From assembly GCF_056746865.1 (NCBI RefSeq), contig NZ_CM163382.1: a stretch of 64,000 nt of DNA; one strand, given 5' to 3'. Positions within the stretch are counted from its first letter, which is position 1. Each line of letters starts with the position of its first letter. The notes beneath the pieces were generated by a model. It made no database searches and was not told the origin of the DNA. It saw only the letters and a list, made by a program, of their open reading frames with translations. Shown here piece by piece: positions 13,988-56,927 of the stretch. The position numbers were made by a program, and so were the translations under genes.

Positions 13988-14074
13988 TGGTACCCGGAGC
14001 GGGACTTGAACCCGCACAGCGCGAACGCCGAGGGATTTTAAATCCCTTGTGTCTACCGATTCCACCATCCGGGC
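13988..14074 (-). tRNA. leuZ: tRNA-Leu (anticodon UAA)
   Basis: Reverse complement matches tRNA-Leu GCCCGGATGGTGGAATCGGTAGACACAAGGGATTTAAAATCCCTCGGCGTTCGCGCTGTGCGGGTTCAAGTCCCGCTCCGGGTACCA. Confidence 0.95.
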
Positions 14075-14086
14075 TCGGGAAGAAAG

Positions 14087-14160
14087 TGGAGGCGCGTTCC
14101 GGAGTCGAACCGGACTAGACGGATTTGCAATCCGCTACATAACCGCTTTGTTAACGCGCC
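14087..14160 (-). tRNA. cysT: tRNA-Cys (anticodon GCA)
   Basis: Reverse complement matches GGCGCGTTAACAAAGCGGTTATGTAGCGGATTGCAAATCCGTCTAGTCCGGTTCGACTCCGGAACGCGCCTCCA. Confidence 0.95.
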
Positions 14161-14213
14161 AAATTCTTCAGGCCTTTCAGCCAGACATCCGCTGACGCCG
14201 ATGTCTTTTAAAC

Positions 14214-14289
<76 letters not shown>

Positions 14290-24138: not shown

Positions 24139-24238
24139 GCCGGATGCGGCGTAAACGCCTTATCTGGCCTACAAAAATGTGCAAATTCAATAAATTGCAA
24201 TTCAACTTGTAGGCCTGATAAGCGCAGCGCATCAGGCA
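24139..24238. repeat. Pair of inverted REP elements (BIME) in the fliC 3' region
   Basis: gccggatgcggcgtaaacgccttatctggcctac and gtaggcctgataagcgcagcgcatcaggca are classic REP palindromes in opposite orientation. Confidence 0.75.
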
Positions 24239-46597: not shown

Positions 46598-46684
46598 AAA
46601 TCCCGACCCTGAGGGGGTCGGGATGAAACTTGCTTAAGCAAGAAGCACTTAAAAAATTCGTTACACCAGGAAATCTGATGTGTT
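46598..46684 (-). ncRNA. dsrA: DsrA small regulatory RNA
   Basis: Reverse complement matches DsrA: AACACATCAGATTTCCTGGTGTAACGAATTTTTTAAGTGCTTCTTGCTTAAGCAAGTTTCATCCCGACCCCCTCAGGGTCGGGATTT. Confidence 0.93.
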
Positions 46685-51896: not shown

Positions 51897-52355
51897 ATGA
51901 ATCCCCTGCGTGTCGATCTGCGCGCTGGCACCTTCGCCGCAGATCCACTCTTCCAGACGCTCGCTAAGCGCTTCATCCGTCAGCTTCTCGCGCCCACGTA
52001 ATGCACACTCCCAGACAATCAATACGCGCCAGCCGAGTTCCTGCAAACGACTGATATCGCGGCGATCGCGTTCAACATTTTTACCTATCTTCTCCAGCCA
52101 GAACTCGGTTCGAGTCGCAGGCACTTTAAACAGATAGCAGTGATGATGATGCCAGAAGCAGCCGTGGGTAAATATCACGCAGCGATATTCATCAACGACA
52201 AAATCCGGGCGTCCGGGCAGACTGGCGTCCTGAACGCGAAATGCCAGGCCCTGCCCGGTTAACAGACTGGCGAGGCGCTTCTCTATCGCCGTATCACGCG
52301 TGGCAATCGCGCGCATATTTTTGCTGCGGGTGGCCTTATCGTGAACGTCGGCCAT
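51885..52355 (-). CDS. vsr: Very-short-patch repair endonuclease
   Basis: ORF 51885-52517; start trimmed to [28 protein letters not shown] (156 aa). Confidence 0.93.
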
Positions 52356-53754
52356 GTTGTGCCTCTTGCTGACGCAACGCCACCGCCTGTTTGATTTTTG
52401 GCTCAAGCAGTTTTGCCACCGCGGCAAAGACCGGCACGACCACCGAGTTACCGAACTGGCGATAGGCCTGAGTGTCCGAAACCGGAATGCGGAATTTCGC
52501 TTCTCCCGGCGCTTCAAAACCCATTAAGCGCGCGCATTCCCGAGGCGTTAACCGACGTGGACGATGTTGCTGATTCAGCGGATCGTCAAAGTCTTTCTCA
52601 CCCGTGGCCATATCCCAGCCGCGATCGATTAAAATTTCCGCGCCATCTTTGTAATAACGCGCAGACAGCGTACGCGTGACGCTTTGCGGATTGTTAGGAT
52701 AGACCATTCCATAACCGAAGCCGTTACCGCGCGCCTGATGTTTTTTCGCATAACGATAGAGGTACTTCCACAGCACCGGCGTCAGGATATATTTCGCCTC
52801 GACCATCGGGTCCAGCAGCTGCGCCAGCGTCACTCGCTGTGCAGGGAAACATTCGCTGATATCACGCAGAGTAAAATCGGCTTTCAGATTAAGATCGCGA
52901 CGAAAACCCACCAGCACGATGCGTTCACGGTGCTGCGGCAGAAAATGTTTACCATCGATGATTTTCGGATCGTCCGGCCCGTTATCTTCTGCATCAGCCA
53001 CGTCATAGCCCAGTTCGTCCAGCGTCTGCATGATGATGCGGAACGTTTTACCCTGGTCGTGGCTTTTCAGGTTTTTGACGTTTTCGAGCACAAACATCGC
53101 CGGACGACGCGCGTCGATAATGCGCACCACATCAAAGAACAGCGTGCCCTGAGTATCGCAGGCAAAACCGTGCGCCCGCCCGAGCGAGTTCTTTTTCGAT
53201 ACGCCAGCCAGCGAAAATGGCTGACAAGGGAAACCGGCCAGTAAAACATCGTGTTCAGGAATGTGTTTACGAATATGTTCCGCCGCCGCCTCATCACTCA
53301 CGCCTTCTTTATGGCTGAGGGTGATGTCGCGGATATCTTCATTAAAATGATGCGTCGCCGGGTCGCAATAATGATTGGCTTTATAAGTGCGTACCGCATG
53401 TTTGTTCCATTCGCTGGTAAACACGCATTGTCCGCCAATCGATTCAAAACCGCGACGGATGCCGCCAATTCCGGCAAATAGATCGATAAAGCGAAACGCA
53501 TAATGCGGATGATGTGCCGGTGGTTTGGGTAACAACGTTTGCAGATGGGCGAACTCTTTCTCACTTAAACGGTGCCATGCCGAGTCATTCGCCAGCGCAC
53601 GTTTTAAAATTGCCGCGCTCCAGTGATTCTCACCCACACCATTAAGCTGCGCCACCAGCGTTTTAACATCATAAATTTGCAGCAGTTTCTCCAGCATTGC
53701 CTGTGCGGCATTCCCGGTGCTGTATGAATCGGTTACTGATATATTTTCCTGCAT
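52336..53754 (-). CDS. dcm: DNA cytosine-5 methyltransferase Dcm
   Basis: ORF 52336-53763; start trimmed to [14 protein letters not shown] (472 aa); C5-MTase motifs FAGIGG and PCQ present; overlaps vsr start. Confidence 0.95.
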
Positions 53755-53820
53755 AGATTTCACCGGCCATCTGAGATGGCCGACAGGTTAACATAATTAC
53801 AGCCATTTAGGGCCACGCGC

Positions 53821-54516
53821 TCAGCCAGCGGATGAAAACGCATCTATCACCTTGTGATCGACACCTTCATTCTCCCCCGCCAGTTCGGCACTGAGCTTCG
53901 CCATAAACTCGACTAAAAAATGCGCGTTGTGCTGCGCCAGCTGCTTGCCTCTTGCGGTTTGCATGGTTTGCGGTAGCTTCAGCAACTTAGTCTGGAAATG
54001 ATCCAGCGCGTAGCGTTTATCATCAAGCGGGCGATGCTGTGCGAGCGGATCTTCACCATCAAACAGCGCCACGCCCAATGCCCCTGAAACGGCAAACACG
54101 CGCGCCAGGCCAATCGCTCCCAGGGCTTCCAGCCGATCTGCATCCTGGACGATTTTAGCTTCCGTGGTTAAGGGGGCGATTTGCGCGCTGAAACTGTGAG
54201 CGGCAATAGCATGACAAACGGCCTCAATTTTCTCCGCCGGAAATTGCACGAACTCTTCACGGAGCAGGCGACGCGTCTCTTCTGCTGCCAGGATTGAAGA
54301 ACGCTGCCTTTGCGGATGATTTTTCGCCAGGCTCACAATATCGTGAAAATAACAGGCGGTTAAAATCACCAGCATATCGACGTCGTCATCTGCCGCCAGC
54401 TTCTGTGCCGTAGCCCAGACGCGGCGAAAATGACACACGTCATGGGCCGCGTCCTGGTGCTGATGATGGTTTTTCAACCAGTTTTCGAACTGTGCCTGCC
54501 AGTGTTGTAAGTCCAT
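53821..54516 (-). CDS. yedJ: HD-domain phosphohydrolase YedJ
   Basis: 231 aa ORF with the HD signature (CYFHDIV). Confidence 0.9.
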
Positions 54517-54555
54517 ACGCGCTCCGTTGCCAAAGAGTAGCCACCTTAGCAGTTT

Positions 54556-54939
54556 TTATTCATAGCGTCTGCTACGTGCGGGACGAGGTCGGGTGTACCA
54601 GGCAATGCTGCCTAACAATGCCCCGACCAGAGCCATAAATAAAAATCCGACCAGTGCCCCTAACCACTTTCCCGCGGTAGAGCCTAAATCGCTTTCAAAT
54701 CCCGACACGGGGGCATCGGGGATCCGGCTCATCACCCAGATGTAACGCGCCATTGCCCAGACGAAATAGCCACACCATGTATAGAAAGCCCACAAAGCCA
54801 GTTTGCCGCCAGGGCTGCGAGAGAGTCTCTCTTCCATCTTTGTCGAACCGTATTCCATTTTGAGATAACCCGGAAAATTCAGACTTAGTACTATTATGTG
54901 ATAAAAGTCACATTTTTCCACATTGGATGAGCCAGTCAA
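54556..54939 (-). CDS. yedR: Inner membrane protein YedR (start codon uncertain)
   Basis: 127 aa ORF with two hydrophobic segments; position matches yedR; the true start may be an internal Met. Confidence 0.7.
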   Translation of the reverse strand: MTGSSNVEKCDFYHIIVLSLNFPGYLKMEYGSTKMEERLSRSPGGKLALWAFYTWCGYFVWAMARYIWVMSRIPDAPVSGFESDLGSTAGKWLGALVGFLFMALVGALLGSIAWYTRPRPARSRRYE

Positions 54940-55086
54940 GACTCAATCATTTTTTGAACAAATAGATAAATTTTGCGCAACGGCAGTGAATACAGGAAAA
55001 ATCGTTTTGAGCGATTTTATTTATCTTTGATATCGGCTTTATTAATTCATTTAATCAATATATTAGCACTGATTACAATTATACCT

Positions 55087-55177
55087 TTTTATTATTCTGT
55101 GTCATGATGCTTCCGTTATTAGCCTTTTATCGTCTTGTTTATATTTTTTGGGCCGGCATGATGCCGGCTTTTTTTTA
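55087..55177 (+). ncRNA. rseX: Candidate small RNA ending in an orphan terminator (position expected for RseX)
   Basis: Hairpin ggccggcatgatgccggc plus T8 at 55151-55177 with no plus-strand CDS upstream; RseX is known to lie between yedR and the yedS porin gene. 5' end not determined. Confidence 0.4.
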
Positions 55178-56229
55178 TGCCTTCATTAATGTGCGCCTGA
55201 TCACACCAGCCGTTTGGCGCAACAATCATTGATACCCCCTATGTTTCCGCTCAACTCATAACATATTGATATACATTTATAATTTTCATGAATATTTATA
55301 TTTAGAATTCATAATTCTGAATTATATTAAATAGATTAGAAACATTTTGAAATCTTTTAAATACATTTGTTACATGTAATCCTTAAAATAAAATGAACTT
55401 CATAGAATAGTATCCAAATGTGCTTTTTTTGGATAACGGCACTTATTGATATATTCATGAAGATTATAATCACAAGGGAATACATAATGAAAAGAAAAGT
55501 TCTGGCAATGCTGGTCCCGGCGTTATTAGTTGCTGGCGCAGCAAATGCGGCTGAAATTTACAATAAAGATGGCAATAAAGTTGATTTCTACGGCAAGATG
55601 GTTGGCGAACGCATCTGGTCAAATACTGATGATAATAACAGCGAAAACGAAGATACCTCCTATGCTCGTTTCGGTGTTAAAGGTGAAACCCAAATCACCA
55701 GCGAACTGACTGGTTTTGGTCAGTTTGAATACAACCTCGACGCCAGCAAGCCCGAAGGCTCTAATCAGGAAAAAACCCGTTTAACCTTCGCAGGTTTGAA
55801 ATATAACGAGTTAGGATCTTTCGACTATGGTCGTAACTACGGTGTTGCTTATGATGCCGCAGCTTATACCGATATGTTAGTTGAATGGGGTGGTGATTCC
55901 TGGGCTTCCGCTGACAACTTCATGAACGGTCGTACCAACGGTGTTGCAACCTACCGTAACTCTGATTTCTTTGGTCTGGTTGATGGTCTGAATTTTGCTG
56001 TGCAATATCAAGGTAAGAACAGCAATCGTGGCGTTACTAAACAAAACGGTGATGGCTATGCGTTGTCTGTAGACTACAACATCGAAGGTTTTGGTTTTGT
56101 AGGTGCATATAGCAAATCTGATCGTACTAATGAACAAGCTGGTGACGGCTACGGTGATAACGCTGAAGTGTGGTCATTAGCAGCCAAGTATGATGCAAAT
56201 AATATCTATGCAGCGGTAATGACTCCAAC

Positions 56230-56733
56230 TTATTGATAGTGTTTTATGTTCAGATAATGCCCGATGACTTTGTCATGCAGCTCCACCGATTTTGAGAACG
56301 ACAGCGACTTCCGTCCCAGCCGTGCCAGGTGCTGCCTCAGATTCAGGTTATGCCGCTCAATTCGCTGCGTATATCGCTTGCTGATTACGTGCAGCTTTCC
56401 CTTCAGGCGGGATTCATACAGCGGCCAGCCATCCGTCATCCATATCACCACGTCAAAGGGTGACAGCAGGCTCATAAGACGCCCCAGCGTCGCCATCGTG
56501 CGTTCACCGAATACGTGCGCAACAACCGTCTTCCGGAGCCTGTCATACGCGTAAAACAGCCAGCGCTGGCGCGATTTAGCCCCGACATAGCCCCACTGTT
56601 CGTCCATTTCCGCGCAGACGATGACGTCACTGCCCGGCTGTATGCGCGAGGTTACCGACTGCGGCCTGAGTTTTTTAAGTGACGTAAAATCGTGTTGAGG
56701 CCAACGCCCATAATGCGGGCAGTTGCCCGGCAT
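56230..56733 (-). CDS. insB: IS1 InsB reading frame (expressed as InsAB' transposase by -1 frameshift)
   Basis: 167 aa ORF ...[52 protein letters not shown]...; overlaps insA 3' end. Confidence 0.9.
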
Positions 56734-56927
56734 CCAACGCCATTCATGGCCATATCAATGATTTTCTGGTGCGTACCGGGTTGAGAAGCGGTGTAAGTGA
56801 ACTGCAGTTGCCATGTTTTACGGCAGTGAGAGCAGAGATAGCGCTGATGTCCGGCGGTGCTTTTGCCGTTACGCACCACCCCGTCAGTAGCTGAACAGGA
56901 GGGACAGCTGATAGAAACAGAAGCCAC
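56652..56927 (-). CDS. insA: IS1 protein InsA
   Basis: 91 aa [46 protein letters not shown]... Confidence 0.93.

Follow-up and report, generated by a model that had tools for sequence, protein, structure and literature searches.

The small RNA gene rseX ends at the isolated terminator between drpB (yedR) and a yedS-type porin gene

The 64,000-nucleotide stretch of contig NZ_CM163382.1 (RefSeq assembly GCF_056746865.1) that was analyzed as a whole, hereafter the window, contains an intergenic spacer bounded by drpB (yedR), which is encoded on the minus strand together with the more distal yedJ, and by a yedS-type porin gene on the plus strand (Table 1). The G+C content of this spacer is 30% compared to 49% for the window, which fits binding by H-NS and the silencing described in the literature. 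An earlier note, made from the letters of the sequence, had drawn attention to a hairpin followed by eight T on the plus strand of the spacer that is not preceded by any coding gene on that strand. Such a gene is indeed lacking: yedJ and drpB are both transcribed in the opposite direction, the porin gene begins only at 55487, and the plus-strand open reading frames (ORFs) near the hairpin are limited to two chance ORFs of 44 and 42 amino acids.

Table 1. Features of the drpB-porin locus, in window coordinates
Feature	Position	Strand	Basis or remark
yedJ	53821-54516	-	beyond drpB
drpB (yedR)	54556-54858	-	flank of rseX
Candidate rseX sigma-70 -10 hexamer, TACAAT	55074..55079	+	read from sequence; ends 7 nt before annotated +1
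rseX, 91-nt small regulatory RNA gene (K-12 b4603)	55086..55176	+	Rfam match, MG1655 identity
Conserved RseX core, nt 12-50, CUGUGUCAU..AU......CGUUAUUAGCCUUUUAUCGUC	55097..55135	+	invariant columns, 10-homolog alignment
5' hairpin of the Rfam consensus (G14-C38, U15-G37, A19-U34 to U23-G30), weak	55099..55123	+	Rfam structure line
U-rich stretch, nt 59-64, just 5' of the terminator	55144..55149	+	U-run listing
Rho-independent terminator of rseX	55152-55176	+	stem-loop 55152-55168, U8 tail 55169-55176
yedS-type porin gene	55487-57337, IS1 inside	+	downstream of rseX

The Rfam search that the earlier note had proposed returned a full-length match to RF01401 (rseX) on the plus strand (55086-55175, model positions 1-94 of 94, E = 3.2e-12), with a score of 97.7 bits compared to the gathering score of 50 bits for this family. 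The gene and its flanks (55030-55200) are identical to the sequence of E. coli K-12 MG1655 in all 171 of the 171 alignment columns, and the MG1655 non-coding RNA gene rseX (b4603, 2033649-2033739), which the annotation places between drpB and the yedS pseudogene, maps to window positions 55086-55176. The feature is the known small RNA (sRNA) gene rseX, it encodes an RNA that does not differ from the K-12 copy, and it is not novel; RseX has been named as an sRNA since the 2000s. The isolated terminator constitutes the 3' end of this gene. The suggestion of a short independent transcript, probably RseX, is supported by the Rfam match, the identity with K-12 and the gene order of K-12, and the position between yedR and yedS that the earlier note gave for RseX agrees with the order drpB(yedR)-rseX-yedS in MG1655. 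The interval originally given for the RNA, 55087-55177, proved correct in location to within one base, with the annotated ends being 55086 and 55176. The window and K-12 share the same 91-nt sequence, the same terminator and the same flanking genes, drpB/yedR and yedS; the context differs in that the downstream porin gene of the window is another allele than the yedS pseudogene of K-12 and is split by IS1.

A comparison of window positions 51937-56016 with K-12 identifies 189 differing positions, none of which falls within 54800-55300 and nearly all of which are located beyond about 55550, within the coding sequence of the porin gene. The porin allele is strongly diverged from K-12 yedS, with 130 differences in 55600-55999, next to an intergenic region and an rseX gene that are identical. 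The sharp boundary of divergence at the porin gene suggests, as judged from this comparison, that the porin gene has undergone recombination or is under diversifying selection. The IS1 element that splits the gene is complete (768 bp, 56215-56982, minus orientation), contains the InsA and InsB ORFs, and is flanked by a 9-bp duplication, CTATGCAGC, at 56206-56214 and 56983-56991; excision of IS1 together with one of the two 9-bp repeats would restore an uninterrupted porin ORF of 357 codons. This IS1-porin junction was found in only 3-6 of the 5426 complete E. coli genomes, including those of strains EC17CM13 and F11. In many RefSeq E. coli genomes, the yedS-type porin next to rseX is labeled 'ompC: porin OmpC', a label that probably misnames a paralog.

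As read from the sequence, positions 55150-55179 of the plus strand are GGGCCGGCATGATGCCGGCTTTTTTTTATG. The hairpin noticed earlier corresponds to the stem GCCGGCA-TGA-TGCCGGC at 55152-55168, in which 7 Watson-Crick pairs, including 6 G-C pairs, enclose a loop of 3 nt; with two additional G-U pairs, the stem can reach 55150-55170. The eight T occupy 55169-55176 and are followed by an A at 55177. In Citrobacter amalonaticus, the outermost pair of the stem shows one compensatory change, from G-C to A-U. A consensus terminator scan identified this hairpin as the sole terminator-like site in the region 54500-55600 on both strands, in a permissive search in which shuffled sequences yield a mean of 1.1 sites for the same region. 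Because the consensus scan is lax, the whole window was rescanned under strict rules (a perfect stem of 7 or more pairs, 5 or more G-C pairs, and 7 or 8 T among the 8 bases that follow), and only four distinct sites were detected in the 64 kb on both strands (128 kb of strand), the rseX terminator and the DsrA terminator being two of these. The rarity of such sites implies that the hairpin is real rather than a chance feature. DsrA itself is encoded on the minus strand at 46598-46684 (Rfam, 102.5 bits); the window additionally encompasses a member of the ES036/CssrF sRNA family (24175-24216, plus strand, 42.9 bits compared to the gathering score of 37.6) and a cluster of three tRNA genes (13991-14289, minus strand).

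The terminator hairpin also dominates the centroid fold of the RNA, at -14.6 kcal/mol, and there is little stable structure outside of it: the minimum free energy (MFE) of the whole RNA is -16.5 kcal/mol, with a z-score of -1.58 compared to shuffled sequences. For the 5' hairpin of the Rfam consensus, no covariation was detected among 10 homologs, sequences that are too similar to each other to test the Rfam structure, and the G21-U32 pair of this hairpin is broken in 2 of the 10; the MFE fold of the RseX sequence from the window prefers another, marginal 5' pairing over this hairpin. Runs of U are located at nt 1-5, 40-43, 59-64 and 84-91. The stretch at nt 59-64, jointly with the 3' U-tail, probably comprises the Hfq-binding module, a role that is assigned to it from general knowledge of Hfq-dependent sRNAs.

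A 92-nt query (55086-55177) matches 4879 of the 5426 complete E. coli genomes, 1622 of them at an identity of at least 99% and 2972 at 95-99%. The absence of rseX from about 10% of the E. coli genomes is consistent with published findings, according to which the gene is variable within E. coli and Shigella via secondary loss (PMC3318445). In 29 of the 30 E. coli genomes that we sampled, RefSeq has no annotation under the rseX match, and in the remaining one, the annotation is 'hypothetical protein'. A pattern scan that fixes 23 bases of the RNA core, run against one genome per species, was positive in six records, namely, E. albertii, E. whittamii, two further Escherichia species, another E. 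coli and Citrobacter amalonaticus. All six homologs exceed the Rfam threshold, with scores of 70.9-95.2 bits (70.9-94.2 bits for the five species other than E. coli). At every homologous locus with enough flanking sequence, the gene order is the same: drpB on the opposite strand, rseX, and a porin gene on the rseX strand.

The alignment of the 10 homologs contains an invariant core at nt 12-50 of RseX, an invariance that is partly built in given that 6 of the 10 sequences were fetched with the pattern that fixes 23 core bases; the three divergent E. coli copies in the alignment came from BLAST and are free of this bias. The porins encoded next to the homologous rseX genes are only 53-60% identical to the porin of the window, and the Citrobacter DrpB is 64% identical to the DrpB of the window. 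The RNA core is far better conserved than the adjoining porin gene.

The sequence upstream of rseX was also inspected for a promoter, as the earlier note had likewise proposed. A well-placed candidate -10 hexamer, TACAAT, precedes the annotated start and takes the form TACAAT, TAAAAT, TACCAT or TACGAT across the Escherichia homologs; the best -35 candidate, TTAATC (55051-55056, 17-nt spacer), is poor, with 3 of 6 consensus positions, and the consensus promoter scan left the rseX promoter uncalled because the -35 element falls below 4 of 6. According to Douchin 2006, as cited in PMC8313858, 5' RACE supports a sigma-70 promoter for rseX. In wild-type cells, RseX is undetectable; the transcript of about 91 nt and a form of about 75 nt were observed only in the absence of H-NS (PMC8313858).

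The opposite strand contains a sigma-70-like site that is close to the consensus (ATGACA-16-TATAAT, 55105..55078, minus strand, 11 of 12 positions). Its -10 element overlaps the -10 hexamer of rseX, and its -35 element is located within the first 20 nt of rseX and coincides with the invariant GUGUCAU of RseX. This is one of two sites with at least 11 of 12 matches in the 64-kb window, and 6.3% of the spacer shuffles give one. We considered and rejected the possibility that this site is the promoter of drpB. That promoter has been mapped between the old GTG-1 and ATG-22, that is, to window positions 54858-54921, and the start codon of drpB has been remapped to ATG-22, at window position 54858 (PMC7648144). 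Two promoter-like sequences, TTGACT-16-AAAAAT with a TG and TGGAAA-16-CATAAT, are present on the minus strand at 54893-54939, within what used to be annotated as the 5' part of yedR, and agree with the published reassignment of the promoter and start of drpB; the latter sequence (54920..54893) fits the mapped promoter position. It is conceivable, but unlikely, that the site at 55105..55078 is a divergent promoter that would vie with the rseX promoter for RNA polymerase, add to the effect of H-NS in keeping native RseX from being detected and yield an unannotated transcript towards drpB.

According to published descriptions, RseX is 91 nt long, downregulates OmpA and OmpC (PMC7648144) and is Hfq-dependent (PMC8313858). 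When overexpressed, it lowers the mRNA levels of ompA and ompC and makes RseP dispensable, as reported by Douchin 2006 in the account of that work given in PMC8313858 and PMC7648144. The ompA, fimB and ihfB RNAs are bound by RseX in vitro and the respective gfp fusions are repressed; the same study states that the RseX binding site on ompA is unmapped (PMC8313858). In a windowed local search, the best duplex with ompA involves RseX nt 37-51 and mRNA positions -23..-7 (-17.5 kcal/mol), and the best duplex with ompC involves nt 29-44 and positions -15..0 (-16.4 kcal/mol), energies that are marginal with respect to chance, with dinucleotide-shuffled RseX sequences giving equal or better duplexes in 11 of 100 cases for ompA and in 10 of 100 for ompC. 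Both predicted duplexes cover the Shine-Dalgarno regions of the targets and both use the invariant core of RseX. The predicted ompA site falls within the region of ompA to which MicA is also directed. Unconstrained RNAduplex predictions for RseX nt 1-64 and the 5' regions of ompA, ompC and the local porin gene produced long, loop-rich duplexes that are equivalent to those of shuffled sequences. The modeled duplexes are consistent with occlusion of the ribosome-binding sites of both mRNAs, which falls short of proof.

On top of the gene identity, the terminator, the conservation and the synteny that are directly observed in this analysis, a mechanism can be proposed in which the nucleotides that pair with ompA and ompC (approximately nt 29-51) and the place of Hfq binding are predicted. 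A weak sigma-70 promoter (-10 TACAAT, poor -35) within the AT-rich, H-NS-silenced spacer would drive transcription from 55086 to the hairpin and U8 (55152-55176). Hfq would be bound by the U-tail and the internal U-run, and the single-stranded conserved core (approximately nt 29-51) would pair with the ompA and ompC mRNAs in the regions where ribosomes bind. The pairing would then block translation initiation and lead to mRNA decay, resulting in a lower load of outer-membrane proteins; in this scheme, the lower load would explain how cells that overexpress RseX can dispense with the RseP protease and with sigma-E activation. It appears highly likely that rseX is an independently transcribed gene for a 91-nt, Hfq-dependent and trans-acting sRNA.

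The arrangement of the locus could also be taken to mean that the hairpin belongs to a leader or attenuator that controls the yedS-type porin gene in cis, with no separate sRNA, given that rseX is co-oriented with the porin gene and, in each of the seven species-level genomes that were inspected, precedes the porin start codon by 310 nt. This possibility is very improbable considering the strength of the terminator, with its 6 G-C pairs and U8, and the character of the gap that separates it from the porin gene, which spans 310 nt with 28% G+C and includes promoter-like sites of its own (55301-55328 and 55367-55394, consensus scan). Furthermore, the published products are discrete, at about 91 and 75 nt, rather than long (PMC8313858), and plasmid-borne RseX works in trans (PMC8313858, PMC7648144); in the windowed search, the pairing of RseX with the 5' region of the local porin gene is at the level of chance, with 44 of 100 shuffles performing as well. 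A cis-acting element aside, the region contains a 42-codon ORF (55104-55232, starting with ATG ATG) that encloses the hairpin and that might be translated into a small protein, in line with the 'hypothetical protein' annotated here in one RefSeq genome. We rejected this ORF as a coding gene, and the chance that a protein is encoded is minimal: the ATG is not preceded by a Shine-Dalgarno sequence, the ORF extends 56 nt beyond the terminator, the 42-aa product has no Pfam match, and the frame is shifted among homologs by single-base differences in the length of the T-runs at 55144-55149 and 55169-55176. Conservation follows the pattern of an RNA: the core does not vary, the hairpin loop does, and there is no third-position pattern.

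It could finally be argued that the hairpin and the T-run arose by chance in an AT-rich spacer, or are a vestige there, and give rise to no transcript, in view of the shuffles that, in the lax terminator scan, match the count of the region and of the failure to detect RseX in wild-type cells (PMC8313858). The probability of this explanation is next to nil. Only four sites of such quality were detected in the scan of 128 kb of strand, published northern blots of hns mutants show a transcript of the expected size (PMC8313858), and the conservation across Escherichia and into Citrobacter involves not only the hairpin but the full 91 nt, which excludes pure chance. The preferred interpretation is that the terminator delimits rseX, a separate sRNA gene.

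Among the sRNAs that act on outer-membrane protein genes, micF and micC adjoin porin genes, as rseX does. MicA, RybB, MicC and MicF are, likewise, short Hfq-binding RNAs with a Rho-independent terminator that pair at or near the ribosome-binding sites of omp mRNAs; none of the Rfam models for these four families matches the rseX region. Unlike these sRNAs, RseX is silenced by H-NS and StpA, is not activated by sigma-E or OmpR, and is undetectable in the wild type (PMC8313858). The sequence-only reading from which this analysis started placed rseX to within one base. RseX already has a name, an Rfam family and an annotation in K-12, and the significance of the finding lies mainly in the correct annotation of this gene.
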